From: Alphaproteobacteria bacterium
GTDB lineage: Bacteria > Pseudomonadota > Alphaproteobacteria > JAJTHO01 > CANGYM01
Reading direction: 5' to 3'
DNA: 53,358 nt
Assembly: GCA_947458235.1 (NCBI GenBank)
Contig: CANGYP010000003.1
Coordinates: forward strand, 1 to 53,358
Below are positions 13,651 through 41,203 of this stretch, piece by piece. The translations under genes and the position numbers were made by a program. The notes beneath the pieces are model-generated. The model was not told the DNA's origin. It saw only the letters and a list, made by a program, of their open reading frames with translations, and ran no database searches. Numbering within the stretch: position 1 is the stretch's first letter; every line of letters starts with the position of its first letter.

Positions 13651-15189
13651 TTAGCGGGGGGCAGGGGCCGTCTTGGGGCAAGTCCCCGCCAGTTCCGTTT
13701 GTTTTTCCTTGATTTTTGTGCTGATGGCGCAGCTAATGTTCAGGATTCTGGGATTCCATTGATAATCAGGGTTTTTGGTGTAGTACTCTAAAAATTGTTT
13801 CGCCTTGGCGGCGTAGGCCTTGGCGAAGCGGATTTCCCCCTCCAGAACGCGGGGGGTGTCGTGGGGATCATTGCCAGACAAAGGCATATAGGCGGCGGCT
13901 TTTTTTTGCAGATTGGTTTTGCGCTGGGCCAAAGAGAGCGGGGCAGGGGACAGGCCATCAAGGCCAGACTGATCCAGTGTCATGAAAAAAGTCGCCATAT
14001 CCTCGCGCTGGGCCTTAGCTTTGGCCACGGAGGGAGGCACCATGCGGTCATAGTCGGCTTTCATGGTTTGCAGATCTTTGGTGGCCTGCGCCACGGCGCG
14101 CCGCTGGCCATCAAGGGCGGACATAACAAAAGGGTTGTTTTTTAACGAAGGATTTTTTGCCAATGCCGCCTCGGCACGCGCCAAAGTCCTTTGTTGGCGG
14201 CGCAGGGCGTAATCTTGGCGTTGCATTTTGGCCTCAAACGCCATCCAGTTGCGGGTGGTGGTATCATACAGTTGGCTGTGTTGTTTGAACACGTTTTGCA
14301 CCAAAGCCACCCGATTTTCGGATTGTAACCATGCGGGGTTTTGAATCCCCGTTTGGCACCCCAGCAGATAAAAAAGGCCGCTGCTGTCAAAGGGCAGGGG
14401 GCGTTTCAGCAAAGTTTGTATCCCGCGGGAAAAGCGTTCGGAAAACACAGACGCATTGTTGGGGGTTTTGGTGGGAAAGCAAGCAGGGACCTGCGTTTGC
14501 AGGGTGTTTAGGGTTAATCCAGCATCACTCAGCTGGGTCAGGGTGTCTGTGACGCTAGAGGCTGTCATGGCCATCAAAGAGGTTAACGTGGCCCCCATGC
14601 GGGTCCGCAGAAGGCCAGCCTGTTCCGCGTCGCGCATACGGGCCAGCAGGTCATCCAAAAGTTGGGTCTCTAGGGCAAGGCCCCCGCCCTCTACGGGGGA
14701 TATTTTCAGGGGGCCTAGAAACTCTGGATTGGTTTGTAGGATTTTTTGCATGGCGGAGGCTGCCGAGAGGGGTTGGATCGCCGTCTCAGGGGCGGGCATA
14801 CCAGGCAGGGAAGGGGGGGGTAATGCGATTGGGGGGGTGCACCCCCGAATTTGCTGGTCATAGCGTTTTAAATCCCGAACAAATTTCTCATAGGCCTGAT
14901 CGGGTTTCAGGAAATAGGGTTGCAAAGTCTGAAACACCTGTTTGTGCTGTTCATTCAGGGCGATGATGGCCTCTTCATGGCGGATGGCGGCCTGAAAGGT
15001 GTTTTGAAACGTCAGGGATAGACTATCGCCCCGAATCAGGGTTTCTGTGGTTTTCCATTGGGTGGCGGCACTGGTGACTTGACGTGCCTGTGCCTGACTT
15101 TGCAAACACCGCAGGGTCCCCTGATCAAAGGGGGCAGCCCCCGCCGAGGGCCACGCAAACGCCAGAACAATCAAAATGAAAATCCCCAT
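13651..15189 (-). CDS. Hypothetical secreted helical/coiled-coil protein (512 aa), last gene of the T4SS-like operon
   Basis: Signal peptide, Gln/Ala-rich heptads, scattered Cys; co-oriented with virB4. Confidence 0.8.
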   Translation of the reverse strand: MGIFILIVLAFAWPSAGAAPFDQGTLRCLQSQAQARQVTSAATQWKTTETLIRGDSLSLTFQNTFQAAIRHEEAIIALNEQHKQVFQTLQPYFLKPDQAYEKFVRDLKRYDQQIRGCTPPIALPPPSLPGMPAPETAIQPLSAASAMQKILQTNPEFLGPLKISPVEGGGLALETQLLDDLLARMRDAEQAGLLRTRMGATLTSLMAMTASSVTDTLTQLSDAGLTLNTLQTQVPACFPTKTPNNASVFSERFSRGIQTLLKRPLPFDSSGLFYLLGCQTGIQNPAWLQSENRVALVQNVFKQHSQLYDTTTRNWMAFEAKMQRQDYALRRQQRTLARAEAALAKNPSLKNNPFVMSALDGQRRAVAQATKDLQTMKADYDRMVPPSVAKAKAQREDMATFFMTLDQSGLDGLSPAPLSLAQRKTNLQKKAAAYMPLSGNDPHDTPRVLEGEIRFAKAYAAKAKQFLEYYTKNPDYQWNPRILNISCAISTKIKEKQTELAGTCPKTAPAPR

Positions 15190-15222
15190 GCTCTACAGTC
15201 TTTCTTCGCGTCCCTGTTGCCG

Positions 15223-16398
15223 TCACTCTTGCCACACGTGGTAGTTGGGATTGTGGTAAAGGGCATGCAGCGAATCGCGCTGCAGTTTTAGGTTTTTCAG
15301 GTGGATTGTGTATTGTTCCAGCAGGCTGCGATCGGCCTCCAGCTTTTGGATCATGGCCAGACTGCGGATGATGCATCCAGAAATGGGCATATTCAGCGTT
15401 TGCAGCTTTGTGGAAAACGCGGCGCCTAGGCCAGATAAGCCACCGCCGATGAGGGGATCTTTAATGAATTGACTGGAAAATCCCGCCAATTCCCCAATAA
15501 TGGCGAGGGGGTTTTGGTTTTGAAAGACAGAAAGATCCTCCACACAGGGTTCATACAGGGTTTTGACGAGGTCTTCTGTAAACAGTTGCCGCATATGGTC
15601 ATGCACACGCCGCATCTCAGAAAAGGCATTCATGCTATAGGCCGCATGGTTGACGATGGCACTTTTGTAGGTTGCCTCCAGACATTGTTTTTGGGCCGCG
15701 AATGTTGTGTTATCACGCTGGTCTTTGTTCAAATCGATCATCTCTGCGATGGTTTTCTGGGCACACTGCATTATATATTGTGTGCGTTGGGCGTCGGTGA
15801 TTTTTTTTTCCGCTATGGCCAGATCCGCCAGTTTTTCACACTGCAAACAGCCAAAATCCGTGGGGGCGGGGTATATTTGGCGGGATTCCTCGATCAGGGC
15901 CCGCATTTTGGCATCGGGCATACCGATGGCATTTTTGATGCCTGTTAGTAAATAATACTGCTCACTGCGTTGTTTCAAAAGGTAATCGAGTTGGGCCGAT
16001 GTGGCTTTGAACTCATTAACCCGCTGGGTTTCATAAAATTGCCGACTGCCGGGCAGCATGGTCAGGTCTGTGACGCAAAACCCCGCTCCGCACCAAGTCG
16101 CATGACAGGGAATGTATCTAATGCAACCAAAACTTCCTGGGGAACATGGTTTACCAGGACATAAACAGCAACCATTAACATTAGGCGTAGGGTAACAAGC
16201 TGAATCCACGCATATATTCACCGGCATAATGGGTGGCGTGGGGATGGATGGCACATAGGCTGGCGGTGCCCCTAGCCCCAGCAGGTTGCTGCCTGCGTTG
16301 GCGGCGGTTGTGGCGGTTGAAACAATATCCGCCACGGGCACGGCCCCCGCCGTTGCCGACAGCCCTGTGATCAGCAAAAACAGGATCGCCCAGCGCAT
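15223..16398 (-). CDS. Hypothetical secreted protein with Cys-rich module (391 aa), possible VirB5-like minor pilin
   Basis: Signal peptide then AVPVAD (like VirB5 G[IV]PVxD), 10 Cys in residues 63-108, helical C-terminus; function inferred. Confidence 0.75.
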   Translation of the reverse strand: MRWAILFLLITGLSATAGAVPVADIVSTATTAANAGSNLLGLGAPPAYVPSIPTPPIMPVNICVDSACYPTPNVNGCCLCPGKPCSPGSFGCIRYIPCHATWCGAGFCVTDLTMLPGSRQFYETQRVNEFKATSAQLDYLLKQRSEQYYLLTGIKNAIGMPDAKMRALIEESRQIYPAPTDFGCLQCEKLADLAIAEKKITDAQRTQYIMQCAQKTIAEMIDLNKDQRDNTTFAAQKQCLEATYKSAIVNHAAYSMNAFSEMRRVHDHMRQLFTEDLVKTLYEPCVEDLSVFQNQNPLAIIGELAGFSSQFIKDPLIGGGLSGLGAAFSTKLQTLNMPISGCIIRSLAMIQKLEADRSLLEQYTIHLKNLKLQRDSLHALYHNPNYHVWQE

Positions 16399-16400
16399 GT

Positions 16401-18167
16401 TTATTCAAGATCTAGGGCTATCGTCTTAGGCCCAGATTCAAAAAAATCCCCCATGCTGGCACAGACATTTTGCAGAATGACCTGCTCTGCATTGACGTTG
16501 GCCATGACCAGATTGTACATGGACAGCCCGATCAGGACGTTGAGTTGGCTGGACACAGCACCATTCTCGCCAGCGCTGGACAAGGCAGCGGCCTGTAACG
16601 AGGCGATGGAGGGACACAATGTTTTTTTCCCATCTTTCCCACTCTTGGTCTTATACAAGGCTGTTTTGCATAGGTTTGAGTTGGTATTTGTTCCCAAAAA
16701 CAAGTCCTGCATCAGTTTTGCCGGTCCCTGTTGTTGCATGACGGCCATGGCGGCGCAGCGGGATTTTGACAGGCCTTGGAAATGACGGTTGACTTGATTT
16801 TCTATCTTGACACAGTTGGATGTGCTGGTCGCTATATTGCGGTTACAGTTTTTGAGGGATCGTAAAATCTCCTCCATCGCTTCGAGTTCGGACATTTTGG
16901 TCTTCGTTCTTGGCAAGGGCGCCGTATTGGGGGTGTCCATGGGTAGGATGCGGGGCGTGCCTGGGCCGCCAGGCTTCACGTCACCGGGGTTACCGCCATC
17001 TTCCCATGGCAAAGGTTTTTTTGGGTTGATGGCACTGATCTTATTCAATGTATCCACCAGTCCTGAGACTAAACCTACTTGTGCCATCCAACCGTTGATA
17101 GGACCAAGGAAGGTTGCGAGATTCGTCACAGCCTTTTGCCATTCCTTCACTTTATCTTCGTCTTTTTTTGGCATAATGAGTCCGCCTTGGATGAGAGATT
17201 CGGTGAGTTGGTTAGCTTGCAAAGCCTCGATCGTCTTTCTTATTGTGTCTGGATTCACGCCCCCACCAAATAAATCTATGATGCTGCCGATCAAGCCAAT
17301 CAGTGTGCCGAAGGCTTTGAGTTGTTCCATGATCTGCACAAATTGGGGGCCGAATGTGATACCAAAGGCTTCACCGAAGAGGTTCGCCATCTCCGTGAAC
17401 GTTGTGATACCAGAGGTCGTACAGGTAAAGATGTTTTTACAGGTTTGGAGTTTTTTGAATGATTCACTCGCGTTATCGATGTTTGTTTTCCATCTGTTAA
17501 TATCTTTCGTAAGTTGCGTAAGCTTGGCAAGGTAATCTGGTTTGTTGTCAAAATCCTTTAGTTTTGCTGTGCCCTTAAACGTAAATTGGTCTCCGTAAGG
17601 GTCGCGAGGGTCAAGATCAGGGATGGGTACGGGGGTTCCAAAATTAGGATTCGTTATAATATCAGGATCGGGGAGCGTGACATTGCCCCCACCCCCCCCC
17701 GGTTGTGGGATCACAGGGAGCGTGCCAATGTCCCCACCCCCCCCCCCCGGTGGGGGGGTCACAGGACGGGTCACAGGTTGGGTCGTTGTTGTAGATCCTG
17801 CCTCTTTTATGACATTATAGGCCATGGACAGTTCCCCCGTATAGGCCGCGTACAGGGAGCTGGAAAAGGCCAACAAAATTTTATCGCTGGTGACTGTTTC
17901 TTCGTCTTCGGGAATGTACTTAATAGCCGCCAGAATCTGATCCAGTTTGTCGTTGGTTTCGCCTTGGAGGCCGACAAGGAGCCCAAGCTGCACATTTATG
18001 GCGGTCAACAAGCCTATTTGTGTGCCCAAAAGCCCTTGGGCCACTGTATCCGACACCATCACCGTCGTGGGGGCCACGGCCGCCGAGGCCCCGTGCAGCG
18101 GCATCATCACCATCTGAATCGCGATGACAGAACACAGGATGCGTCGAAAAAGGGAAACCATAGCCAT
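16401..18167 (-). CDS. Hypothetical secreted protein (588 aa) with Pro/Gly linkers, possible VirB5/TrbJ-like adhesin
   Basis: Signal peptide, poly-Gly/Pro linkers, helical blocks, Cys pairs; directly downstream of virB4. Confidence 0.78.
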   Translation of the reverse strand: MAMVSLFRRILCSVIAIQMVMMPLHGASAAVAPTTVMVSDTVAQGLLGTQIGLLTAINVQLGLLVGLQGETNDKLDQILAAIKYIPEDEETVTSDKILLAFSSSLYAAYTGELSMAYNVIKEAGSTTTTQPVTRPVTPPPGGGGGDIGTLPVIPQPGGGGGNVTLPDPDIITNPNFGTPVPIPDLDPRDPYGDQFTFKGTAKLKDFDNKPDYLAKLTQLTKDINRWKTNIDNASESFKKLQTCKNIFTCTTSGITTFTEMANLFGEAFGITFGPQFVQIMEQLKAFGTLIGLIGSIIDLFGGGVNPDTIRKTIEALQANQLTESLIQGGLIMPKKDEDKVKEWQKAVTNLATFLGPINGWMAQVGLVSGLVDTLNKISAINPKKPLPWEDGGNPGDVKPGGPGTPRILPMDTPNTAPLPRTKTKMSELEAMEEILRSLKNCNRNIATSTSNCVKIENQVNRHFQGLSKSRCAAMAVMQQQGPAKLMQDLFLGTNTNSNLCKTALYKTKSGKDGKKTLCPSIASLQAAALSSAGENGAVSSQLNVLIGLSMYNLVMANVNAEQVILQNVCASMGDFFESGPKTIALDLE

Positions 18168-18212
18168 ACGCCCCTAAAAAAATTAAAGAGTTTAGTTAAA
18201 ATTTACCATATT

Positions 18213-20663
18213 TTAAGAATCGCTGTCAAGGTAGATGTTCAGCCATTCGGATTGGTAATTTTGCATCAACCGCTCTGCCAAGGCGCGGGAGGGTTCATCG
18301 GAATAATAAATCCGCATCAACCGCCCCAGCGCGGACAGGTCCGTGTCCAGAATGATGGATTCCCCGCTGGCCCGTTTCATCAACACAGAGCGTTTCAGTT
18401 TCTTGGCGGCGGGCAGCTTGCCGCTGATGTACAGCCATTCTCGCTCGGTTAATCCCCAGTCCTGATATTCCCGCGCTTGGCCTTGGGGGTTGGGGAAGAA
18501 AAAGGTGGTTTGCGCCTGACCACGGATGGCCTCGCCGAGGCCGGCTTGGGTGATGGCCTCTGGCCGCTGGAACGCCGAAATGACGGCGCCGCGCCGTTTT
18601 CGATATTCCTGCAACATCTGCAAAAAATAATTCCGGAAAATGGGGTGCTTGACCACGGGTTCCGTTTCATCAATAAAAATCAGGGCAGGGGCCTTCAGTT
18701 CGGAAATCGTATCCTGAATACGGTGCATCAAATACAAAATCACGGCCCGCGCCAAATCATCATGTTCGTACAGGCGCGTAAAATCCAGCGCGACAATGCG
18801 GGATGTTTTTAAATCCAGCGTGTCTTGCTTGGCGTTAAAAATTTTTCCATAAACGGCAGGATCCACCCATTTGTGAAGGTTTTTCCGCAGCATACCGCCT
18901 TTGCTGTACACCGCATCATAAATGTTGGCCAGCGACCGCCGTTCATAGGGCAGGCCGGGGGTGTCATAGGCGGCCTCAATGGAAAACCCGATTTCCTCGA
19001 TGGCATCGGCATCCTGACAATCCGACAGCGCCTGAAGAAACGCCCTGAGAAAGGATCGGTTGGACGCATTATCCTTGAGCTGGAACGGATTCATGGACGA
19101 TTGAATGCCGGGGATGTTGGACCCCTCAAACGTAATATAACTGCCCGAGGCCGCGCAGGTGAACAGATACCCCCCCCCGTGACGGTCCACCATATAATAG
19201 CGTAAATCCTCGTGCCGCATGGCCATACCCGCCAGAAAGTTGATCAGCGTGGTTTTTCCGCCCCCTGTGGGGCCAATGCTGACGGCGTGGGCGACGGCGG
19301 CCTTTTCGGGTGAGATATGAAACTGAAAGGCGTAGGGCGTTCCAGAAATGGTCCGAAAGTTGGCAATAGGTCCCTTGCCCCAGTCCGAAGAGGTCAGCCC
19401 TGGAAAGGGGCGCTCAAACGTCAAATGCGTGGCGATGTTTTTGGAAAACAGTTTGTAGGGCCGCGGCCATAATTTGAAACTGGGGAATTGTAAAAACCAG
19501 CTGGCTTGCGCCACGGCCCCCTCGCGCACCACAGAGATCCCATAAGTGCTGGCGATGCGTTTGACTTCGGCTTCGGTGGCTTCCATTTCCTCCACCGTTT
19601 TGCCATAGCAAAACACCATCATCATGTATTGTGACAATACGTTGGTGCCGCCCGTGTTGCCCTCCACCGCATCCAGTGCCGTTTCAAATTGGGCGGCGGT
19701 GCCCGGACTGAATCGCTGGGCCAGAGACAATTTGTATTGGTGGGTGATGTGGATGGCGGCTTTGGTTTTGGTCCACGGTTCGATGACGTGGGACACAATA
19801 ATTTCTCCGTGAACGCTGTTTAGGGAATTGACATAGGCTTCGTAGGTAAAATCCCCCAGCGCCCGTAACCCGACACAGCAGCAATGCAGGGTTTTGTGGC
19901 CCGATCGGAACAGGATACCCCCATCATCCCCCCCAAATTCCACCTGATCCCCGCAAATGGCATCGGATGCCCCATCCCCCACCCCCCCCGGCACGGGCTG
20001 GGAAATCGGGCTGACAATACGGGAAAACACATACAGGGGGCGCATTTTCACATCGGGATGGCCTTGTGTCATGACCATGGGGCCATATTTGTGCAAAATG
20101 TTTTGGGTGATATCGATGACAGAGTTTAGCTTTTTCTGGGACGTTTGGTCTTTGTCAGGCAAAGAAAAAACCACAAACTGGCGGTTGCTATAGGCGCGGG
20201 CAAAGGTTCCGTTCCATCGTCTGGCAATTTCCCGCAACACAGGGTTGCTGTGGGTTGTGGGGGGTGCGACATCCACTCTTTCGCGGACGGTAAAGGCCCG
20301 AATGCTGACATGATAATCTTGCAGGGCATCGATCCAGTCCTTGCGTGCCAGCAACAGCATTTCACGGTCGTGATCGCTCATGAACGTATCATCAAAGCCC
20401 ATCATTTCCACGCATTGCACCAAGTCCCCGTTTTTACAGGCAATGGTTTTGCCATCGCTTAAGACCTTTTCAAAGGGCAGAACATCCGCCAGACGGTCTT
20501 CTCTGGGATAGGGCAGCAGGACGCGGGCCGTGGTGGGTATGGCGATGACGGCAAAGGCCACACCCGCCGCAATGACACCCAGCAGGGTTAGCAGCACAGA
20601 GACCACACTGAAATGTTCAGAAAACGCAGCCAAAACCTCGGGGGATAAAGACTCAGGGGACAT
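18213..20663 (-). CDS. virB4: VirB4-family type IV secretion ATPase
   Basis: Walker A GPTGGGKTT, Walker B LIFIDE, Y.FQFH...AH motif, EYRKRRG; 816 aa; follows virB2/virB3-like genes. Confidence 0.93.
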   Translation of the reverse strand: MSPESLSPEVLAAFSEHFSVVSVLLTLLGVIAAGVAFAVIAIPTTARVLLPYPREDRLADVLPFEKVLSDGKTIACKNGDLVQCVEMMGFDDTFMSDHDREMLLLARKDWIDALQDYHVSIRAFTVRERVDVAPPTTHSNPVLREIARRWNGTFARAYSNRQFVVFSLPDKDQTSQKKLNSVIDITQNILHKYGPMVMTQGHPDVKMRPLYVFSRIVSPISQPVPGGVGDGASDAICGDQVEFGGDDGGILFRSGHKTLHCCCVGLRALGDFTYEAYVNSLNSVHGEIIVSHVIEPWTKTKAAIHITHQYKLSLAQRFSPGTAAQFETALDAVEGNTGGTNVLSQYMMMVFCYGKTVEEMEATEAEVKRIASTYGISVVREGAVAQASWFLQFPSFKLWPRPYKLFSKNIATHLTFERPFPGLTSSDWGKGPIANFRTISGTPYAFQFHISPEKAAVAHAVSIGPTGGGKTTLINFLAGMAMRHEDLRYYMVDRHGGGYLFTCAASGSYITFEGSNIPGIQSSMNPFQLKDNASNRSFLRAFLQALSDCQDADAIEEIGFSIEAAYDTPGLPYERRSLANIYDAVYSKGGMLRKNLHKWVDPAVYGKIFNAKQDTLDLKTSRIVALDFTRLYEHDDLARAVILYLMHRIQDTISELKAPALIFIDETEPVVKHPIFRNYFLQMLQEYRKRRGAVISAFQRPEAITQAGLGEAIRGQAQTTFFFPNPQGQAREYQDWGLTEREWLYISGKLPAAKKLKRSVLMKRASGESIILDTDLSALGRLMRIYYSDEPSRALAERLMQNYQSEWLNIYLDSDS

Positions 20664-20949
20664 ATTTGCGGATCCCGTGCTTTCCCTTAATCAAATTGCG
20701 TGTGGATCGTTTGCTATAGGCCCATGCGGGGACAAGGGTGGCCATATGGGGCTCCCGCGCCCCTTGGGCGGCCAAAACCATATGGAAAACAATCAGGGAA
20801 ATGATAACTAACAACGGGCTGATTTTAAATAACCCCCACGCATACACAATGCCCAAGGCATGCAAGCCCATGTTAATGATGGCAGGGATCATGGGGGCCC
20901 AAAACAGGGTGGGGGGACTGGCAACAGCACGCATGACTTTTTCTGGCAT
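20653..20949 (-). CDS. virB3: VirB3-family type IV secretion membrane protein
   Basis: RAVASPPTLFWAP (VirB3 .ltRP.l.GvP-like), two TM helices, REPH; RBS before ATG at 20949; overlaps virB4 start. Confidence 0.82.
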   Translation of the reverse strand: MPEKVMRAVASPPTLFWAPMIPAIINMGLHALGIVYAWGLFKISPLLVIISLIVFHMVLAAQGAREPHMATLVPAWAYSKRSTRNLIKGKHGIRKYVP

Positions 20950-20980
20950 GGGAGAACCTTCCTGACAATACCCCCAGAGT

Positions 20981-21550
20981 TTAGGGGCCATTGGTTAAAT
21001 AATTCACAATGGCACCAGCAGAGGTGATAATCGCCAACCCTGCCGTTAACGCAAACAACCACCGAAACGGAAATTTCCCAAACAGCCCCATAATCCCCAA
21101 GGCCGCTGCCGCAACCCCGCCCAAACCGAACAGGACATTGCGGGTATCTGTAAATAACACCTGTCCTGTGTCCCCAATGACCTTGGCTGTTTCCGCATAG
21201 GTTGTCACATTCTGGTTGGGTTGTACAACCTCTTTATAAAGCCATTCGCACATGGCGGGGACCAAGCTGGCGATGACCAGCGCGGCCATGACGGTAAACA
21301 GCCAGCCCCAAGGCATCTGTCCCCCATACATGGCCCGAATGCCAATGCCCAGCATGGCCAGCGTGCCTAGGGCATAGATGATGGGTTTGGAACTGTTGAT
21401 GATTTCGCTGCCTTTGATCACAGCCTCTGAAAATGGATTGTCGGGGCCGGCGTTAACGCTGCAGGCGGCCCCAGTGGTGGCCGCTGACGCCTGTCCCCCC
21501 AGTCCCATGAGCATCAAAACCATCGCAAAAAGGATCATCCGCGGGGCCAT
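20981..21550 (-). CDS. Tandem double TrbC/VirB2-like pilin (189 aa)
   Basis: Signal peptide plus two hydrophobic hairpins, each with a G(Q/K)(M/F)P(W/F).WL motif. Confidence 0.78.
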   Translation of the reverse strand: MAPRMILFAMVLMLMGLGGQASAATTGAACSVNAGPDNPFSEAVIKGSEIINSSKPIIYALGTLAMLGIGIRAMYGGQMPWGWLFTVMAALVIASLVPAMCEWLYKEVVQPNQNVTTYAETAKVIGDTGQVLFTDTRNVLFGLGGVAAAALGIMGLFGKFPFRWLFALTAGLAIITSAGAIVNYLTNGP

Positions 21551-21562
21551 AGAGAGGGGTTC

Positions 21563-22216
21563 CTAGTTGGTTTTGGGTATGCTGTAATCGAGAGGTTGTA
21601 AAGTGCCACTGATGTTATCGTTGGGATTGGCAAAATTATCGCCCCCGACGTTATCGCCCCCCATAACCCCCACAACATCGGCCAGTTGCGCGGTAAAGGT
21701 AAAGCCCCCCAAAATGGCCATCATCCAGCCCCACCGAAAGCGGCCCGATAAAAACGATACGGCGGCCACGCCCATGGCCCCAAAGGCCCCCACGCCGTAC
21801 AAAACCTGCTTTAAACTGACGGCCACGGTGTCGCTGAATTTTTCTGTGGTTTGGAACAGCTCAACACCGTTGGATGTATAGCCGCTGTAGGCCCTGTATT
21901 GCTCGCGGACGGATCCATAAAATTCAGGCATGATGGACAAAAACGCCAAGGATCCGATATAGGCAAAAAAGTATCCCCACGGCCAGCGCCCCAACAGGGA
22001 CATGATAATCAGGCCAATGGCCCCCAAGCCCGCCAAACCAAACGCCACCCCGCCCATGTTATCGGCCATGCTGTTGGCGGAACCCTCTAATTTCGCGATG
22101 GGGGATTTTGCAATGGCGGCCGCTGTTTGGGTGAAAACAACCATCAGGCCCAAAACCAAAACCCCCCACCACAGCCCGCCGCCCAAACGTCGGAAAAAAC
22201 GGGGGGCGGGGGACAT
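21563..22216 (-). CDS. Tandem double TrbC/VirB2-like pilin (217 aa)
   Basis: Signal peptide plus two units: GLGAIGL..LGRWPWGY and GAFGAMG..SGRFRWGW. Confidence 0.78.
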   Translation of the reverse strand: MSPAPRFFRRLGGGLWWGVLVLGLMVVFTQTAAAIAKSPIAKLEGSANSMADNMGGVAFGLAGLGAIGLIIMSLLGRWPWGYFFAYIGSLAFLSIMPEFYGSVREQYRAYSGYTSNGVELFQTTEKFSDTVAVSLKQVLYGVGAFGAMGVAAVSFLSGRFRWGWMMAILGGFTFTAQLADVVGVMGGDNVGGDNFANPNDNISGTLQPLDYSIPKTN

Positions 22217-22250
22217 GGCGGGGGACTCCTGAATTGTTGATATAATGAAA

Positions 22251-22607
22251 TTAATCGCTGGTTTCTAGGCCACCAAGATTGGTTCCACCTCCAGCGAGGT
22301 TTTCAACAGCAAGGTTGTAAAGCCCAATCAGGGCCAATCCGCCGACCAGTCCAAAAAACCACCCCCATTGAAAGCGGCCAAAGAACGCCAAGGCACCCAA
22401 GGCTACGGCCCCTAAGCCGCCGATTCCATAGGAAATGGTGCGGCTGGCCTTGGTGGCGTCCCCGACGACACCTGACACCTCGGTGGTAATGTTTTGGCCC
22501 GTCAGCTGTCCATTCCCCCATGTGACTGAATTGTTAGCGAATGCTGGGGGGGAAAAAGCCATAAAGGCAACAAACATAAGACTGAAAAGGGTGAGTAAAT
22601 GTTTCAT
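22251..22607 (-). CDS. TrbC/VirB2-like pilin (118 aa)
   Basis: Signal peptide ending AFA, hairpin GGLGAVALGALAFFGRFQWGW. Confidence 0.85.
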   Translation of the reverse strand: MKHLLTLFSLMFVAFMAFSPPAFANNSVTWGNGQLTGQNITTEVSGVVGDATKASRTISYGIGGLGAVALGALAFFGRFQWGWFFGLVGGLALIGLYNLAVENLAGGGTNLGGLETSD

Positions 22608-22661
22608 AAGGGGATCTCCTAGTGATATTTGGATTTGTTAGATTCTCTCTATCCAAGATGG

Positions 22662-23012
22662 TTAAGGTGTACTGGTTTTGAGGTCGCTAAGGTTGCCTCC
22701 CCCTAGGTTGGTAACGGCCAAGTTGTAAAGCCCAATCAGGGCTAATCCGCCAACCAGTCCGAAAAACCATCCCCATTGAAAACGGCCAAAGAACGCAAGG
22801 GCCCCCAAGGCCACAGCCCCCAATCCCCCAATCCCATAGGAGATCGTGCGGCTGGCCTTGGTGGCGTCCCCGACGACACCTGACACCTCGTCTGTTATGG
22901 GACTGCCTTTGAGGTTCCCCGGAGCCCACTCCACTGGGCCAGCGGCGGCTGGGGGGGAAAAAGCCATAAAGGCAACAAACATAAGACTGAAAAGGGTGAA
23001 TAAAGATTTCAT
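22662..23012 (-). CDS. TrbC/VirB2-like pilin (116 aa), paralog of 22251-22607
   Basis: Same core as neighbour; start MKSLFTLF at 23012 with GGAG RBS. Confidence 0.85.
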   Translation of the reverse strand: MKSLFTLFSLMFVAFMAFSPPAAAGPVEWAPGNLKGSPITDEVSGVVGDATKASRTISYGIGGLGAVALGALAFFGRFQWGWFFGLVGGLALIGLYNLAVTNLGGGNLSDLKTSTP

Positions 23013-23064
23013 AAGGGTATCTCCGTTGATGTTGGTGTTCTGAGGGTGTTGGTTATGGTGTGCA

Positions 23065-23430
23065 TCAAAAGGGATCCCCCGTAAAAGCGGTGACGCCTGT
23101 GCCATAAAGGCCCACCAGCATCAATCCCCCCATCAATCCCCATAACCAGTTCCAATTAAAGCGGCCAAAAAACGCAAAGGCTGACAGGGCCACGACCCCA
23201 AGGCCGCCCAAGCCATAGCTGATTTGCCGCCCAGAAGATGCACTTTCATCCACAAAGGTTTCCATTTTTCCAATCACTTGATCGGGGGATTTAAAAGATC
23301 CTGTGGTGGTGGTGGGCCATCCCGCTGCATCGGCAGTTGTGGCGTGACCACACAGCAAAAGGCCAGCCAAAATCACAATCCCCAAAACACGACCACAAAG
23401 ATCGGAAAACGACAGAACGGCGTTTGTCAT
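23065..23430 (-). CDS. TrbC/VirB2-like pilin (121 aa)
   Basis: Signal peptide, ISYGLGGLG..AFFGRFNWNW core. Confidence 0.82.
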   Translation of the reverse strand: MTNAVLSFSDLCGRVLGIVILAGLLLCGHATTADAAGWPTTTTGSFKSPDQVIGKMETFVDESASSGRQISYGLGGLGVVALSAFAFFGRFNWNWLWGLMGGLMLVGLYGTGVTAFTGDPF

Positions 23431-23469
23431 GGCACGGGACTCCTTCGGTGCATTTTTTTATATTCAAAG

Positions 23470-23485
23470 TGTGACATTGGTCACA
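23470..23485. promoter_or_regulatory. CRP/FNR-family-type operator TGTGA-N6-TCACA
   Basis: TGTGACATTGGTCACA, a perfect match to the CRP core consensus, upstream of the first pilin gene. Confidence 0.65.
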
Positions 23486-23491
23486 TTTTTT

Positions 23492-23520
23492 ACCTTAAGA
23501 CATTTTTAACTATCTGTCAA
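23492..23520 (-). promoter_or_regulatory. Sigma70-type promoter of the pilin/T4SS operon with overlapping CtrA box (23495-23510)
   Basis: Minus strand TTGACA-17 nt-TAAGGT; plus strand TTAA-GACATTT-TTAAC equals the full CtrA consensus. Confidence 0.7.
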
Positions 23521-23618
23521 AGCTTTTTTTAAATTATTTTGTATTTTATAGATGCCCCAGCGTGACGCGTGTGCTTGGGATTCAATGCCAAAACGAACGT
23601 CAGCGAGAACCGTTGGGT

Positions 23619-24719: not shown

Positions 24720-24724
24720 GGCGT

Positions 24725-25615: not shown

Positions 25616-27238
25616 TTAATCGTCTGGATTTCGCTTGCCGTCCCCTGCGGCCTCTGCCGTGCCCACCAACGCGATGGAGGGCAGCCAACGATACAGGACG
25701 GAACGGGGAAAAATGTCAATGGACACCCGCGCATGGGTTCCCGGCTCCTGATGCCCCGCCGTCCCCCGCAGAGGTTTCAGATACACCGACGTTAACGATG
25801 GATCCTGCATAACCATCGGTGAGAGGCCATAACGTTCTGTGGCCGCCACGGGGCGGATATCCACCACGCGGGCGGGCATGTCCCCCGCACGGTCGCCCAG
25901 AGCGACGCCCGCTTTGTCCCCTACTTGGACACGGTTCGCAACAGAGGCGGGCAATCGGGCCTCGATCAACGAGGCTTCACCCGCATCCTCCTGCAAACGC
26001 ATCACGATGCTGCCCTGATTGACATAGGCTTGGTGGCTTTGGGCCGATACGATCCGACAATCACATGGGCTGGTCAGGGTTAAACCGTCAGTACGATCGT
26101 CCAGCAAGCGCCGCTGCCGTAACAGGATTTCGTATGCGGCCAGTTTTTCAGAGATTTCCTGATCCCAATCTTGTGGGGTCCGTCCCCCCGCCGTATCCAG
26201 AGACATGATGGCCATTTGCACGTCTGTTTTGGCTTGGTCCAAGGCGGCCTGTGCCTCATCCACGCCCGCTTGGGCCTTGGTCACGTCCACCTGAAGGTCA
26301 CCCCATTTGATCTGGCTCAGATAGCCTTTCTGGTGCAAGGGGGCCAAGCGCTTCTGACGGTCTTTGGTTTGGTCGTACTCAGCCTGCGCCGCCCGCAGCC
26401 TGTGTTCTTTCTGACGCCGTGTCTCTTGGGCCGCCTGCTGGCGAAAGGACACCCGTAGGCCCGCATCCTGTTTTTTGTCCTTCAGGCCCTCAATTTGTAT
26501 CCGCAAAAATGCCATGTCGTTTTGCAACCGCGCCTTGGCTTCTTCCAATTTTGGGGAGCTCAGGGCACCGATGATTTGGCCCTTATGCACACGGCCAGAA
26601 GGTTGTACCAATGTGTTCCAAACCAGCTGACCAGATTCAGGGGCTGTCACCATCCGCATAGGCACCGTGACGGCCGCAAAGGGTGCGGACGCATAAATCC
26701 GAAAAAACGTCTGCCACAAAGCCCAAACCGTCCCCACCAGCAGTAACACCACCAACGCGGCGAACAGGGCGTAACCCCGATGCTTACGACGTAAAAAGGC
26801 TTGTTGAAGCTGATCTTGGGGGGCGGGCGAGGGCGTAGGATGATCCGCTTGCTCTTGATCTGCCGTATGCGGGGCGTCCCTCTGATTGTCAGCGTGCAGC
26901 GGGGGTGGCGCAATCTGGGGGTGATGGGGATTCTGCCCGCCCAGCACGTCATCTAACCCGCTTTGTTGACGCATGTCCTGCCACACCAAAGTGCCGACAT
27001 AGTGATGATGACACCGCGAGACCCCCTCCACCGTGCCCCGCAGCGTGAGGGCATGGCCCTCATAAACAATATCCACCGCAACAGGGGTATCAATCACCAA
27101 AGGATAATCAAAGCGACCCACCAGACGATCTCTGGACAGATGATAAACCTCGGCTGAGAGGCGAGGCCAAGACCCTTGTCGGGCACCCTGCAAAGACTCC
27201 TGAGCGTCTAAGACTAAACTGGACTTTGGCATCATCAT
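25616..27238 (-). CDS. Alg44-like protein: degenerate PilZ-like domain, TM helix, HlyD/membrane fusion domain
   Basis: TM at about residues 155-178, long coiled coil, LTSPCDC motif typical of Alg44, N-terminal beta-rich segment. Confidence 0.72.
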   Translation of the reverse strand: MMMPKSSLVLDAQESLQGARQGSWPRLSAEVYHLSRDRLVGRFDYPLVIDTPVAVDIVYEGHALTLRGTVEGVSRCHHHYVGTLVWQDMRQQSGLDDVLGGQNPHHPQIAPPPLHADNQRDAPHTADQEQADHPTPSPAPQDQLQQAFLRRKHRGYALFAALVVLLLVGTVWALWQTFFRIYASAPFAAVTVPMRMVTAPESGQLVWNTLVQPSGRVHKGQIIGALSSPKLEEAKARLQNDMAFLRIQIEGLKDKKQDAGLRVSFRQQAAQETRRQKEHRLRAAQAEYDQTKDRQKRLAPLHQKGYLSQIKWGDLQVDVTKAQAGVDEAQAALDQAKTDVQMAIMSLDTAGGRTPQDWDQEISEKLAAYEILLRQRRLLDDRTDGLTLTSPCDCRIVSAQSHQAYVNQGSIVMRLQEDAGEASLIEARLPASVANRVQVGDKAGVALGDRAGDMPARVVDIRPVAATERYGLSPMVMQDPSLTSVYLKPLRGTAGHQEPGTHARVSIDIFPRSVLYRWLPSIALVGTAEAAGDGKRNPDD

Positions 27239-27411: not shown

Positions 27412-28239
27412 TTAAAAGAACTGAGGTTTAGAGATGACCGTATTGCAAAACACATCGGCTAGGGGCTGCTCTGTGCTTTGACGGCTGATCCGCCATCCTC
27501 GCTGCGCCGCAAGGGTATCGAGGGCATGCATATGCGCGGCATAACGGGTTTGATAGGATGGGCGCAAGGCCTGTGCATTCTCAACCAAACAATCCGCGCC
27601 CCCTGCCAAATCCCGAAACCGAATGGGTCCTTGATAGGGAAACGCGACCTCAACCGGATCATAAACCACAAACAGGTGCACATCATCGGTGGTTATGGTG
27701 GCAAACAGGGCAGCCAAGGTTTCCTGTGCGTATAAAAAATCCGAACACAAAACCATCATATCGGCGGGGGGTATGGGGCCTTGGGGAAAAACAACCTGTT
27801 TGTCCAGATCCCGCTCCAGAGGCACAATATCATGATAACGGTGATGGGAACCACCCTGAAGGCTGATGAGCCAATCCCCCTGCCGCGCCATGGCCCAGCC
27901 CCATGCCAAGGCCATCACGTCCGCCTGATGCTGCTTAGTGCGTTCTGCCGTGGTAAAGCCCATGGTGGGGCGGCGATCCACCCACAGGGTCAGGCTGCTG
28001 GGCACGGCATCTTCGTGCTGCTTGGTTAACGGCTGGCGATATCGGGCCGAGGCTCGCCACGCAATGCGGGCAGCATCATCTCCCGCCGTGTAGGGGCGAA
28101 ATTGCCAGAATTCCGTTCCCTGTCCCCGACGGTGGCGCGGGGCGGCCCCCTGCCAAGGGCGTGGTTGATGGCTGAGCGGCATAAACGGGGGGATCAAGAG
28201 ATCCGACAGGGCCAAAGCTTCGCCAACGCGGGTGATCAT
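27412..28239 (-). CDS. DUF58 domain protein
   Basis: G.GTEFWQFRPY..GDD..RI.WRASAR, SDFL, DPVE..FPY. Confidence 0.92.
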   Translation of the reverse strand: MITRVGEALALSDLLIPPFMPLSHQPRPWQGAAPRHRRGQGTEFWQFRPYTAGDDAARIAWRASARYRQPLTKQHEDAVPSSLTLWVDRRPTMGFTTAERTKQHQADVMALAWGWAMARQGDWLISLQGGSHHRYHDIVPLERDLDKQVVFPQGPIPPADMMVLCSDFLYAQETLAALFATITTDDVHLFVVYDPVEVAFPYQGPIRFRDLAGGADCLVENAQALRPSYQTRYAAHMHALDTLAAQRGWRISRQSTEQPLADVFCNTVISKPQFF

Positions 28240-31055: not shown

Positions 31056-31185
31056 GATGTTGGTCCTTTGTTTTTTGGTTAAAAGGGGACAAAAACCATC
31101 CACCTATAATCGTTTTTCTGCCTTGGTGCAAGATGATTTGAAGTCTTTTTGTGGTCTCGTGCTTGAAGGCAGGTGCATAACTGTT

Positions 31186-33138: not shown

Positions 33139-33211
33139 AGGGGATCTCCTTGACTGAACACACTAGACATGCCGTGCTGCATTTCGGCATCCGAGTTAAC
33201 GGGTTTTGACA

Positions 33212-34201: not shown

Positions 34202-34216
34202 GAGCCCTATTCCTTA

Positions 34217-35224: not shown

Positions 35225-37278
35225 TAAGCCACCGCTTTTTTGTCATCAGGATTCTGGCCCCCATACACAAACACACGGGCACATTCTGCCATGGTTTTCG
35301 ATGCCCGCGAAATGGGATCGGTCTGGTAAAAATTGCTAATGGGGTACACCAACGGGGCTTTGTCCAGCGTTTTGGGGCTTTGGGGAAAACGGGTCCAAGA
35401 CGGTGTCGGACACTGATCCCGAACCGCCAAAGCAGGATAGTGCTGCACCATGGCCAACCGAACCTCCTCCAACGTGCGATAGGTCAGCGAGACGCCAGAG
35501 ACATGATCTGCTAAGGCACGAAAAATTTTCCAGTCCTCTTTCGCTAAGTGGGGGGGGGTGACGGCAGGCAAAGCCTCTTGGATGCGCCCCTCGGTGTTGA
35601 CGTATAGGGCTTGCTTTTCTGTATAGGCCGCCCCAGGCAAAATCACGTCGGCATAATGGGCCGCTTTGTCGCCATGGTGGCCTTGATAAATCACAAAAGC
35701 CTTTTCCAAAACATCCGTGGGCACATCGTCCGCCCCGTACAGGTACAGCGTGGTCACGGCACCGCCGCGCACAGCATCAAACAGGGCCTGTTGCCCGCCC
35801 TGTGTCACAAAGCCCAAATCCAAGGCTGCCAGCGTCCCCACGTTGTGGTGCAAAACGTTAAACCCAACACAATCGGGCGTGATTATGCCCACGGATTCGG
35901 CCAGATCAGCAGCGTAGGCATAGATGGCCTCGCCGTCAGAACGTGCCAAAACCGATGCGCCCAGAATCAAGGCAGGACGCTGGGCTTTTTTCAGGATACC
36001 CGCAAAGGGAACCGCACCCTTGGCAAGGCCGCGCAAAACCTCCGCCGTATTGCCCAAATGGTCATAGGGATAGGTCAAATCCACAGCCTCCCCCACCAAA
36101 GCCACGGGCAGGGCGTTTTGCGTATAACGTTTACGAATGCGGGCGTTGATCAGGGGTGCTTCCCAACGGGGATTCGTGCCCACCAACAACAGGGCATCCA
36201 CCGATTCCAAGCCCGCAATGGTGGTGTTAAACATATAGCGAGAGCGATTATCGCGGGGAAACACGCCCCCGCCCGCGCCGTCATAACGCGTTACACCCGA
36301 GGCATCCAAAAGGGTTTTCAGCACAAACAGCGATTCCAGATCCGCCAAAGGTCCCCCTATGGCGGCCAATGTTTCGGGCTGGTGAAAGCGCTCGGCCACC
36401 GCGCACAGGGCTTGGTCCCAAGGGGCTTCCTTCAGATCCCCCTGATACCGGATATAGGGGCGATCCAGACGTTGGTACTTCAAGCCATCACAGGCGTGGC
36501 GCGCTTTGTCGCCGATCCATTCCTCGTTAATGTCCTCGTTCAGGCGGGGCAGGATGCGGACAACCTCCGCCCCACGCCCATCAATGCGGATGTTGCTGCC
36601 CACGGCGTCCAAAACGTCAATGGATTCGGTTTTTTCCAGTTCCCACGGGCGGGCATGAAAGGCGTAGGGCTTGCTGGTTAAGGCCCCCACGGGGCACAAA
36701 TCCACAATGTTGCCAGACAGTTCGCTGGCCACGGGGCGGCCCAGTGTGGTGATTTCCATAGATTCCCCGCGTCCCACGGCCCCCAAAGCGGGAACCCCCG
36801 CAATATCCTCAGCAAAACGCACGCAGCGGGTGCAGTGGATGCACCGCGTCATAACGGTCTTGATTAGGGGACCCATCTCTTTTTCAGGGACAGCCCGTTT
36901 CTCTTCGTGATAGCGGCTTTTGTCCATGCCGTAGGCCATGGCTTGGTCCTGCAAGTCGCATTCTCCGCCTTGATCACAGATGGGGCAATCTAGGGGGTGA
37001 TTGATCAATAAAAATTCCATGGCACCGCGACGGGCTTTTTGCACGCGGTCGTTGTGGGTGTGCACCACCATCCCGTCAGCCACGGGCATAGCGCATGAGG
37101 CAATGGGCTTGGGGGCCTTTTCCAGATCCACCAGACACATGCGACAGTTGCCAGCGATTTTTAAACGATCATGGTAACAAAAACGGGGAATTTCAACACC
37201 AGCCAGTTCGCACGCCTGAAGGACAGTGATCCCTGCAGGGGCCTCTAAGGTCTGACCATCAATTATCAGGGTGGGCAT
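35224..37278 (-). CDS. nuoG: NADH-quinone oxidoreductase subunit G
   Basis: [40 protein letters not shown]. Confidence 0.98.
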
Positions 37279-37342
37279 AGAAAAACCAGACGTTGTCTCT
37301 TCCTAAAGCCCTATGTAGTCCAAAGCCACACAAAGCGCAAGG

Positions 37343-37372
37343 CTCTTTCCACCAAGGTCTCTTTCCACCAAG
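37343..37372 (+). repeat. 14-bp direct repeat CTCTTTCCACCAAG x2
   Basis: Copies at 37343-37356 and 37359-37372 in the divergent intergenic region. Confidence 0.9.
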
Positions 37373-37408
37373 AGCGCCCCATGACCTGAAGAGGGGCCTG
37401 AAAAAAGG

Positions 37409-37438
37409 TGTGACTTTTGCCACAAATTTTATTATAAT
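37409..37438 (+). promoter_or_regulatory. CRP/FNR-type site (TGTGA-N6-CCACA) and -10 TATAAT upstream of the VirB6-like locus
   Basis: TGTGACTTTTGCCACA at 37409-37424 (1 mismatch), TATAAT at 37433-37438. Confidence 0.5.
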
Positions 37439-37457
37439 CACCCTCTAGGGAGATTGC

Positions 37458-39626: not shown

Positions 39627-41203
39627 TCCGCATCATGATCCTGTTGATACTGCTGGGGGGGTGGGGGCAGGGGGCTTGGGCGGCAACGCTGGGGAAGTCT
39701 GATCCATTCACGCCGCCGCCAGCATCCACCCCAGCCCCTGATCCGTCGTCCGCGACCCCATCGGGAAGCTCGAATCCTCTGGATTTTGGAAAAATAAACG
39801 TTCCAAATGTGGGCACCATCGATGCGTTTGACCCTGGCGAAAAACGTCTGGCGGAAACGTGCCAGACTTACGAAAGTATGTTTGTTGTGCAGGGGGATAT
39901 TACCGCCAACAATCCAGCGGCCAGTTTGATCCAGAACTTTTTGCGGGCTTTTGCGGCCCTGCAACAGGCCTTTAATACCAAAATTGCGGATGCGGCGGTG
40001 GGGTTGGGGTTGATTTTGCTGGTGTTGTTTTCGTTGTTTTATGGGCTGCGGTTGGTGTTTCCCTTCACCCCTTACGGGCAGATTGCGGAGACCTATAACC
40101 AGATTTTCAATCTGTGGGGTGTGGCGGCCGTGGTGTTTTTGATTGTCATGAATCCGAATTTTATCCCCAACAACGTGGTGTACCCTGTGTTCAAAAGTTT
40201 GGTGAATGCCAATTTTACTTTGCTGCAGGTGTCCTCGACCTTGGCCAACGAGGCCACAGAGGGGGCGTCCAAAACCGACCCCAGTTGCCTAGGGAAATCA
40301 GGGGGCAACAACCCGTTGGAGCGCATCATTCGCGGCATCGTCGAACAAACCACCTACGCCCAAGGCGTCAGTATGAACAACCTGTGCATCAGTCTGAGCA
40401 TTATCGGCTTTGCCGATCCTGATGACGGCGACCGCTGTCTAGAAGCCAACAGGAAAAAAAGCACTATCGAGGCCTGTAAAGCTGAAAATGTGGCCAAAGG
40501 TTTATTGGAGGCGGCGTGGTGTGAGGCCGTGATAGAAGGACAATTCCTGGCTGGGGCTTTTATGGGGGCCCTGGATCTGATAGGGGGACTTTTAAATATG
40601 GCTTGGAAGGCACTTTCATCTGAGAATCCCTTTATGGTGCTCCTTAACGTCGTCATTAAAATGATTTTTGGATTTGGTTTGTTCATGATTGCATTGTATA
40701 AATACCTGATGATCGGGCTTTATATGCTAGAGGCCGCTATGCTGCCCTTTATCCTGTCCGCATTTTGGAGTTTGATTTTGATCGTTGGCATCATTCCTGC
40801 GGGGCGAGAGGTCATCAAAACCGCCTTCTTCGCCGTCTTGCAGGGCGGTGCCACCATCATTTTTCTGGGGGTTGGGCTGTCTGTGATTGCGGCGATGGAT
40901 ACTTATGTCTGGTATCAATTTACGAAGGATCCCAATATGGTCCAAACGACACTCGTCAGTTCCAAAAACTTTATGTACGCTTGGCCTTTATGGATGATTT
41001 TAATCACCAGCTTTGCGGGCATCAACGCCCTGAAGCAGGCACGGTCCATGGCGGAATCGGTCTTTAAAACGGGCCTTAGCTTACAAATCGCCGACAGCTT
41101 GTTTGGAACGTTTAAGCAGATGGTGTATTTTGCCATGGATGTTTTGGGGGATCTGGCCAGTGCTGGGGGCTTTAGCAAAATTCGCCGTGTGGTGCTGCGC
41201 TGA
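39623..41203 (+). CDS. VirB6/TrbL-like polytopic membrane protein (526 aa)
   Basis: Signal peptide, 2 TM, Cys-containing loop, 4-5 TM; similar layout to upstream gene; ATGA overlap. Confidence 0.65.
   Translation: MIRIMILLILLGGWGQGAWAATLGKSDPFTPPPASTPAPDPSSATPSGSSNPLDFGKINVPNVGTIDAFDPGEKRLAETCQTYESMFVVQGDITANNPAASLIQNFLRAFAALQQAFNTKIADAAVGLGLILLVLFSLFYGLRLVFPFTPYGQIAETYNQIFNLWGVAAVVFLIVMNPNFIPNNVVYPVFKSLVNANFTLLQVSSTLANEATEGASKTDPSCLGKSGGNNPLERIIRGIVEQTTYAQGVSMNNLCISLSIIGFADPDDGDRCLEANRKKSTIEACKAENVAKGLLEAAWCEAVIEGQFLAGAFMGALDLIGGLLNMAWKALSSENPFMVLLNVVIKMIFGFGLFMIALYKYLMIGLYMLEAAMLPFILSAFWSLILIVGIIPAGREVIKTAFFAVLQGGATIIFLGVGLSVIAAMDTYVWYQFTKDPNMVQTTLVSSKNFMYAWPLWMILITSFAGINALKQARSMAESVFKTGLSLQIADSLFGTFKQMVYFAMDVLGDLASAGGFSKIRRVVLR

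Follow-up and report, generated by a model that had tools for sequence, protein, structure and literature searches.

Among described type IV secretion systems (T4SS), two are of special interest for this work, the rvh system of Rickettsiales and Trw of Bartonella; here and below, published systems are characterised from the accessible portions of the cited papers. The rvh system is defined by genes placed in islets, five VirB6 proteins, duplicated VirB4, VirB8 and VirB9, lack of VirB5 and vertical descent (Gillespie et al. 2009, PMC2653234), and multiple virB2 paralogues are described in Anaplasmataceae. Castelli et al. (2024) present the T4SS as a hallmark of Rickettsiales and report that flagellated, 'basal' members have kept the biosynthesis of nucleotides, its presence showing an almost perfectly inverse correlation with the nucleotide translocase tlc. 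Trw has multiple variable copies of VirB2 and VirB5, a proposed role in adhesion and, in the accessible text, no VirD4-like coupling protein (PMC12857230). We wanted to describe a VirB-type T4SS encoded in a stretch of 53,358 nucleotides, hereafter the window, from an Alphaproteobacteria bacterium (assembly GCA_947458235.1, contig CANGYP010000003.1). The window is an entire contig (C3) of a genome of 1,403,721 bp in 97 contigs, with an estimated completeness of 94.7%.

We observed that this genome encodes a complete, vertically inherited VirB/VirD4 system, in which no relaxase was found. Its genes form islets on four contigs: two on C3, and one each on C32, C41 and C1. It is a known kind of system, a scattered and domesticated VirB/VirD4 machine, with unusual gene fusions and three fast-evolving orphan secreted proteins. 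Taken as a whole, we consider it probable that the four contigs encode one complete, domesticated P-type T4SS which delivers effectors and carries the three secreted proteins as an exposed tip.

The window supplies the front end of this machine, namely five genes for VirB2, VirB3, VirB4 and a part of the VirB6 platform with a built-in lytic transglycosylase of VirB1 type. The minus strand carries a head-to-tail array of ten genes, bounded by aroC and by lptD, which is convergent with it. These are the five pilin genes (23430 down to 20981), virB3, virB4 and then open reading frames (ORFs) of 588, 391 and 512 amino acids (aa; 18167 down to 13651), which we call p588, p391 and p512. A second locus, on the plus strand and 14 kb from the operon, holds a 722-aa ORF in which an SLT domain is joined to a VirB6-like part (SLT722), and a 526-aa VirB6-like ORF (p526). 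Proteins were identified by Pfam and NCBIfam scans, BLASTP, hhalign comparison of family profiles, prediction of hydrophobic segments, AlphaFold2 (AF2) and ESM Atlas. A first-pass annotation, made from the letters of the window alone, had listed five pilin genes, virB3, virB4, three signal-peptide proteins and two VirB6-like genes 14 kb away; all of them were confirmed in their positions. The flanks, described there as housekeeping, proved to be so: together with the 14-kb spacer they carry housekeeping and flagellar genes (cox3, surf1, ispH, thrC, lptFGD, aroC, fabI, mlaEF, nuoGH, cutA, ksgA, rpoN and flgFGH).

The rest of the machine was detected elsewhere in the genome. Contig C41 carries, in this order, a 68-aa ORF with a lipobox, VirB8 (Pfam, E 9.7e-23), VirB9 (CagX, E 1.9e-28), a 388-aa lipoprotein, VirB10 (TrbI, E 2.3e-33) and VirB11 (T2SSE, E 1.6e-23). 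The 68-aa ORF, judged by its lipobox and its position upstream of virB8, is a candidate VirB7-like protein. VirD4 stands alone on contig C1 (PF02534, E 2.6e-65). VirB4, VirB8, VirB9 and VirB10 are single-copy; PF03135, PF04335 and PF03524 each matched once, at a genome completeness of 94.7%. All T4SS frames are open and no match contains a stop. Among solved structures, VirB8 matched only the Bartonella VirB8s (best E 6e-6) and VirB4 had a sole relative, TrwK of R388 (E 3e-31). The first-pass annotation had recognised no VirB7-11, VirD4 or relaxase. This is correct for the window, but for the genome it holds only for the relaxase families searched. Its proposal of a device for contact or adhesion only, made for want of VirB7-11 and VirD4, was not upheld, as the genome encodes these proteins, VirD4 occurs in all 14 genomes of the order and relative G009 keeps a whole B2-B11-D4 operon. 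The apparent absence came from looking at one contig, and parts missing from a single contig are no evidence of an atypical system. Also, assignment of all components to canonical families had been named there as something that would refute its reading; most components could be so assigned, the exception being the three secreted proteins.

Two C41 products showed further features. In VirB10 (locus L003, 3613-5316) the N-terminal region is Ig-like, with a weak match of HYDIN/VesB type (E 4e-5), and there is an apparent lipobox. The 388-aa lipoprotein between virB9 and virB10 matched no known family; a 415-aa lipoprotein of G009 is its positional counterpart, without BLAST similarity.

A search of the genome (94.7% complete) for three relaxase families, PF03432, PF08751 and PF03389, which did not extend to further families or to oriT, gave 0 matches, and PF03389 (MobA/MobL) was absent from all 14 genomes of the order. 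These results agree with the earlier suggestion that the system is probably non-conjugative. The view that it is chromosomal and domesticated among housekeeping genes also stood. No compositional anomaly was seen: GC content is even across the window, and it is 0.51-0.55 at the T4SS loci vs 0.525 in the genome. Neither window locus is adjoined by an integrase or a tRNA gene, the two tRNA genes of the window not being adjacent to them.

The T4SS is inherited vertically across the order, as VirB4 and VirD4 occur in 14 of 14 genomes, VirB4 forms one clade and GC content is even. The order comprises small-genome freshwater Alphaproteobacteria (14 genomes of 1.3-1.9 Mb, in four families). In six metagenome-assembled genomes VirB4 is 94-98% identical and has the same neighbours; outside the genus its identity is 62-66%, and VirB11 is 70% identical between families. 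G009 keeps the system in a single block of the order pilins-B3-B4-536aa-340aa-B8-B9-415aa-B10-B11-D4, where the 536- and 340-aa products are orphan secreted proteins and the 415-aa product is the lipoprotein mentioned above. Therefore the dispersal seen in the window genome is secondary.

Further, we built a quick VirB4 tree with IQ-TREE (20 sequences, with several long branches, SH-aLRT support only and no named Rickettsiales sequences). The order formed one clade (SH-aLRT 95), joined by G034 (100). Within it the two genomes of family f2 grouped together, as did the three genomes of the window genus, and family f4 was not resolved. The order with G034 was sister (92) to Microvirga, Erythrobacter, G031 and G036, and all these groups were split (99) from VirB4 of Ti, TraB of IncN, VirB4 of a Xanthomonas plasmid and TrbE. 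In five small tlc-positive genomes chosen as likely stand-ins for Rickettsiales, VirB4 was not detected (0/5).

Three observations concern VirB8, VirD4 and the virB4 locus in relatives. G036, a distant small-genome relative whose VirB4 is approximately 40% identical, has two VirB8 paralogues (locus L037, 1159-2894), 31% and 25% identical to VirB8 of the window genome; by sequence this pair looks like an rvh-like duplication, which is absent from the window genome. G008, a complete genome of 1.87 Mb from the same order, has four matches of the VirD4 family, where each of the remaining 13 genomes has one or two, which suggests an extra T4SS or a mobile element. No pilin genes lie directly upstream of the virB3-virB4 locus of G008.

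We compared the system with those described, and the earlier comparison with the expanded gene sets of rvh and Trw turned out to be apt. With rvh, compared without Rickettsiales sequences, it shares chromosomal, vertically inherited islets, five extended VirB6 paralogues, no recognisable VirB5, no relaxase and multiple virB2 genes. It differs from rvh in that VirB4, VirB8 and VirB9, which are duplicated there, are single-copy here, and in the fusion of SLT to one VirB6, YkuD and M23 on a second VirB6, tandem double pilins and three orphans after virB4. None of the order's 14 genomes had a match for the tlc translocase; in a sample of 121 genomes of the class, 15 were positive. By description only, the order resembles the 'basal' flagellated Rickettsiales (Castelli et al. 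2024). What it has in common with Trw is several sequence-variable copies of surface-exposed pilus components (PMC12857230). However, Trw as described in the accessible text is without VirD4 and amplifies a true VirB5 together with VirB2, whereas here VirD4 is present and the VirB5 slot is taken by three unrelated orphans.

The nearest named VirB4s belong to plasmid modules, those of Microvirga sp. VF16 (pMVF16-3, 36% identity) and of an Erythrobacter aureus plasmid (32%, as for Sphingosinicella). These modules have the order B2-B3-B4-(1-2 small secreted proteins)-B6-B7-B8-B9-B10-B11-D4, and the nearest plasmid relatives carry MobA/MobL beside this same gene order. They have one pilin, one gene of VirB6 size, the MobA/MobL relaxase and a DnaB-like helicase, all in one block, whereas the system of the window genome has expanded pilins and VirB6s, orphans in the VirB5 slot, no relaxase found and a dispersal among housekeeping genes. 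In comparison with VirB/VirD4 of pTi, all VirB functions but VirB5 are matched and the order B2-B3-B4-(B5 slot) is kept. However, VirB1 is a separate gene on pTi and is fused to VirB6 here, VirB4 belongs to the other major clade, and Ti has one VirB2 and one VirB6.

The five pilin genes encode seven VirB2 domains, as the 217-aa and 189-aa genes hold two each. All five products match one another in BLASTP and the seven domains share the core [YF]G[LIV]G..G...L......GR[FW].WGW in an alignment, while PF04956 (TrbC/VirB2) was matched by three of the five genes (two above the cut-off, the third weaker). The second gene probably starts at M32 (23012) and encodes approximately 116 aa, as its orthologues have 114-121 aa. 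From its identity to this gene, the third appears to be a recent paralogue. The 189-aa double pilin has a full-length orthologue in G009 (32% identity over residues 1-183), and a double pilin adjoining virB3 is probably present also in G034. VirB3 may start at M15, judged by the length of its orthologues (98 aa). These are 35-60% identical and adjoin VirB4 in five of the six loci of relatives examined, being absent beside VirB4 of G010.

Although neither SLT722 nor p526 gave a direct match to Pfam TrbL (PF04610), both were found to be VirB6-like, as the first-pass annotation had supposed. In hhalign, the family profile of SLT722 (orthologues from the order) matched an alignment of 14 bona fide TrbL proteins from other Alphaproteobacteria with 98.1% probability (E 8e-14, 266 columns), and that of p526 with 96.5% (E 1e-9, 262 columns); the two families matched each other with 99.8%. 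SLT722 has six hydrophobic segments after its signal peptide, and each of the two proteins has at least five. In the feature search of ESM Atlas, TrbL clusters ranked first for p526 (scores 0.91-0.92, 192-199 shared features). Its profile gave a best match of only E 0.46 against PDB sequences. The SLT part of SLT722 contains ES, GxGQ and AYNxGEG at residues 76-79, 95-99 and 155-161, which we take to be motifs of SLT lytic transglycosylases. They are visible in orthologues of family f2, and the fusion of SLT to VirB6 is therefore real and older than the genus.

Further VirB6-like proteins are encoded on contig C32, where ORFs of 148, 512 and 514 aa follow a 1463-aa protein that matches TrbL weakly and contains YkuD and M23 peptidase domains. 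The 1463-, 512- and 514-aa proteins are polytopic. BLAST ties them, SLT722 and p526 to proteins of relatives with weak TrbL matches (16-25 bits), and links the three also to each other and to p526. By these similarities, the genome has five VirB6-like paralogues. The fusion of M23 to VirB6 was seen also in G034. A 644-aa pentapeptide-repeat protein adjoins the C32 islet.

We then analysed the three orphans of the operon. Each of p588, p391 and p512 has one N-terminal hydrophobic segment (a signal peptide) and no other clear transmembrane segment, and none of them matched a Pfam or NCBIfam family. The mature proteins have even Cys counts (8, 16 and 6, respectively). The frame of p391 begins 2 nt past the stop codon of p588. 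An alignment of p588 orthologues showed conservation at residues approximately 1-125 and 440-588 and a Gly/Thr/Pro-rich middle, variable in sequence and length. Seven p588 orthologues searched against Pfam at E<=10 gave only chance matches in single members, and p588 had no usable match in ESM Atlas. Against PDB sequences, the profiles of p588 and p391 had 0 matches and that of p512 had 4 (all E>=0.5). We detected 31 relatives of p391 at 55-100% identity; the profile of p512 found 11 relatives among 1.84 billion representatives. The AF2 model of p512 was confident and all-helical (pLDDT 80.6, pTM 0.70), while that of p391 (23 sequences) was unusable (pLDDT 41, pTM 0.25).

The trio stands directly after virB4, where records of Ti, IncN, Xanthomonas and Erythrobacter annotate VirB5 or 'type IV secretion system protein'. 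VirB5 itself (PF07996) had 0 matches in the genome at E<=1; across 121 genomes of the class there were 3 matches, 1 of them above the cut-off. An alignment seeded from the one Pfam-positive VirB5 of this sample had 1 match, itself, and tblastn against plasmids gave one enterobacterial lineage only. The families of the trio were compared by hhalign with 20 post-virB4 proteins of relatives, and only p512 was matched (a 489-aa protein of G008, 95.5%), the others reaching at most 30%. A VPVxD start after the signal peptide was seen in p391, in some p588 orthologues and in post-virB4 proteins of the Erythrobacter and Microvirga plasmids and of G036. Identification as VirB5 through this motif was tried and rejected, the profile match being only 2.4%, and the motif is kept as a lead.

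The predicted complex of p391 with the C-terminal domain of p588 had a median score of 0.55 (0.45, 0.55 and 0.64 in the three runs). The runs agreed in at least 27% of contacts, with a partner pLDDT of at least 46. The best of three controls scored 0.00, and 0.00 was obtained also in the control in which the C-terminal domain of p588 was replaced. Of 80 solved complexes, 58 attained the mark for this score, as did 2 of 110 mismatched pairs; scores of 0.60 or less were given by only 7 of those 80 solved complexes, and by both passing mismatches. The prediction lends weak support to binding of p391 to the C-terminal domain of p588.

Identities within the genus differed strongly between the proteins. 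They were 94-98% for VirB4, 85-94% for VirB3 and 46-83% for the pilins, and 64-73%, 52-62% and 35-39% for p512, p391 and p588, respectively. The housekeeping proteins AroC (92%) and LptD (81-89%) were compared in the same way. By these values, the trio diverges far faster than housekeeping genes, and in p588 the variation is concentrated in the middle of the protein. SLT722 (65-72%) and p526 (72-82%) are fast-evolving as well.

We propose that the T4SS would no longer conjugate. Protein effectors, recruited by VirD4, would pass into a cell touched by the machine, either a eukaryotic host or bacterial prey. Such translocation may be expected from the retained VirD4 and VirB11 and from the likeness to rvh and other effector-delivering T4SS. 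The orphan trio would fill the VirB5 slot as an exposed distal tip or adhesin module, docked on the stalk of VirB6 and VirB2. A distal module that may replace VirB5 would agree with where the trio lies, with its export signals and disulfide content, with its rate of evolution and with the weak complex score. The conserved ends of the trio would anchor it in the machine, while target specificity, or escape from recognition, would come from the variable pilins and from the hypervariable part in the middle of p588.

Several points weigh against this proposal. No effector, host or prey was identified, and transport rests on the retention of VirD4 and VirB11 and on analogy. None of the trio is demonstrably VirB5-like by PF07996, hhalign or the fold search with p512, whose model matched no PDB fold (best TMq 0.17), VirB5/TraC included. 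The p588 family reached only 2.4% in hhalign against post-VirB4 proteins of plasmids and relatives, and the alignment fell on the N-terminal VPVxD region. Among the loci of other families examined, a homologue after virB4 was detected only for p512, and therefore the trio as a set belongs to this genus or family alone. VirB3 and VirB6 stay under the Pfam cut-offs, and their assignment depends on position and on the comparison of profiles. Finally, a relaxase could sit in unassembled sequence (94.7% complete, 97 contigs), only three families having been searched.

The operon was sought also in sequencing runs. Part of it was contained in 20 of the 24 listed runs, and at least half of it in 13; the runs come from 10 studies and one is possibly the source sample. 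According to their records, the operon-bearing runs are freshwater, lake-water and aquaculture metagenomes. In RNA data, short contigs of 90-99% identity were found in three of three libraries (two studies) and covered parts of the first pilin gene, other pilins, virB3, virB4, p588 and p391; these are contigs only, with no silent control stretch, so they are not proof of transcription. The scans of the operon for promoters (11 promoter-like sites vs 8.9 +/- 3.0 in shuffles) and terminators (16 terminator-like sites vs 16.1 +/- 4.2) were uninformative. One DNA run (X13), whose record names a single organism and not a metagenome, had contigs over the whole operon (13651-23600; 41 pieces, 30 of 30 bins, 90-99+% identity). 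Its presence there may reflect association with a host or a co-culture partner.

We considered other explanations for the system. A classical energy parasite is argued against by the lack of tlc, the flagella and the intact biosynthesis, and a eukaryotic host and bacterial prey are both possible. The machine could be a T4SS with which an epibiont or predator kills bacteria, analogous to the X-T4SS of Xanthomonadales, sending toxins into its neighbours. SLT on one VirB6 and YkuD with M23 on another are in line with this, and the tlc counts (0/14; 15/121 in the class sample) with the kept flagellar and biosynthetic genes fit a life outside host cytoplasm. We find it unlikely nevertheless, as the hydrolase domains form part of polytopic membrane proteins and are not free effectors, VirB4 of the Xanthomonas plasmid belongs to the other major clade (SH-aLRT 99) and the single-organism DNA run with the whole operon hints at association with a host. 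An adhesion-only machine, in which variable pili bind the surface of host or prey and no substrate is transferred, would account for the five pilin genes, whose products are 46-83% identical within the genus, and for the hypervariable secreted proteins. The multiple variable VirB2 and VirB5 copies and proposed adhesion role of Trw point the same way (PMC12857230). Yet Trw, in the accessible text, is without VirD4, and here VirD4 is kept in 14 of 14 genomes and VirB11 is 70% identical between families, which makes this possibility quite unlikely in our view.

It is very improbable that the loci are a decaying remnant of an integrated conjugative element. The genes are indeed spread over four contigs, and the nearest plasmid VirB4s (32-36%) sit in relaxase-linked modules of the same gene order. 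However, the frames are open, the set is complete, VirB4 is 94-98% identical within the genus and occurs in every one of the order's 14 genomes, and neither an integrase or tRNA beside the loci nor a difference in composition was seen. A system for uptake or release of DNA, like ComB or that of the gonococcal genetic island (GGI), is the explanation to which we give hardly any weight. DNA release by a T4SS needs a relaxase, and none of the three families searched was found. T4SS with VirB2-4 and VirB6-10 can import DNA, but ComB, as far as the accessible text describes it, is without VirD4 and VirB11 (PMC12857230), and both are present here. Delivery of effectors by a domesticated VirB/VirD4 machine is the explanation that we prefer. 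A stricter version of it, joining an rvh-style layout (independent or by ancestry), a three-protein tip in place of VirB5 with target range set by the hypervariable part of p588, a pilus of mixed single and doubled subunits and wall enzymes built into VirB6, is tentative and rather doubtful as a whole.

Table 1. Genes of the T4SS in the window and the islet on contig C32 (positions are those of the window unless a contig is named).
Feature	Position	Strand	Description
VirB2-like pilin gene 1, 121 aa	23065-23430	-	First in operon; BLASTP 48-51% to other pilins; weak TrbC match; shared core
VirB2-like pilin gene 2, ORF 147 aa	22662-23105	-	PF04956 E 4.1e-7, 30.6 bits, above cut-off; 82% identical to gene 3
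VirB2-like pilin gene 3, 118 aa	22251-22607	-	PF04956 E 7.8e-5; 82% identical to gene 2
Tandem double pilin, 217 aa	21563-22216	-	Both halves match single-domain pilins (BLASTP) and align on the core; no Pfam match
Tandem double pilin, 189 aa	20981-21550	-	Directly upstream of virB3; PF04956 E 5.4e-9, two matched stretches; two separate TrbC matches on DNA
VirB3, ORF 112 aa	20653-20991	-	PF05101 E 3e-4, 21.5 bits, under the 23.9-bit cut-off; conserved position
VirB4 ATPase, 816 aa	18213-20663	-	N-terminal hydrophobic segment; TIGR00929 (VirB4_CagE) E 3.3e-100; PF03135 30.4 bits vs cut-off 21
p588, secreted orphan, 588 aa	16401-18167	-	No family; conserved N- and C-terminal domains, hypervariable middle; 8 Cys in mature part
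p391, secreted orphan, 391 aa	15223-16398	-	No family; Cys-rich N-terminal part, helical remainder; 16 Cys
p512, secreted orphan, 512 aa	13651-15189	-	Last of operon, convergent with lptD; all-helical; six conserved Cys; no family
SLT(VirB1-like)-VirB6 fusion (SLT722), 722 aa	37458-39626	+	Signal peptide; PF01464 at residues 70-174; polytopic VirB6-like domain; acidic and basic tail
VirB6-like p526, 526 aa	39623-41203	+	Overlaps the end of the fusion gene by 4 nt; hhalign match to TrbL
Third T4SS islet	Contig C32 (locus L038) 2626-10423	-	1463-aa protein with YkuD, M23, VirB6-like region and weak DnaJ match; 148-aa ORF; 512- and 514-aa VirB6-like proteins

Some neighbouring genes of the window were also noted. 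A 540-aa ORF of no family, with one hydrophobic segment (25616-27238, minus strand), is flanked by fabI and a DUF58 gene (27412-28239, minus), upstream of the T4SS operon and on the operon's strand. Elsewhere in the window there are genes for sigma-54 (rpoN; 42370-43767, plus), a membrane adenylate/guanylate cyclase (46240-47568, minus) and the flagellar L-ring and rod (flgH, flgG and flgF; 48042-50975, minus). The organism is probably motile, with sigma-54-dependent regulation.

In a limited literature search, within the accessible portions of the sources, we found no published description of fusions between peptidoglycan enzymes and VirB6, of tandem pilins or of the orphan trio. If our reading is true, the three-protein tip, the covalently doubled VirB2 pilins and the SLT, M23 and YkuD domains in VirB6 would each represent a new way of building a T4SS. 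Two questions named as open in the accessible text of PMC12857230, how a pilus is nucleated without VirB5 and what role extended VirB6 has, are touched by the tandem pilins, the VirB6 fusions and the trio. The rvh-like layout is best known from obligate intracellular Rickettsiales, and here it occurs in abundant lake bacteria without tlc and with flagellar and biosynthetic genes. These bacteria would be a second lineage in which to study how a machine for conjugation turns into an organ of interaction with host or prey, and the system is a hint that they may live attached to other cells.

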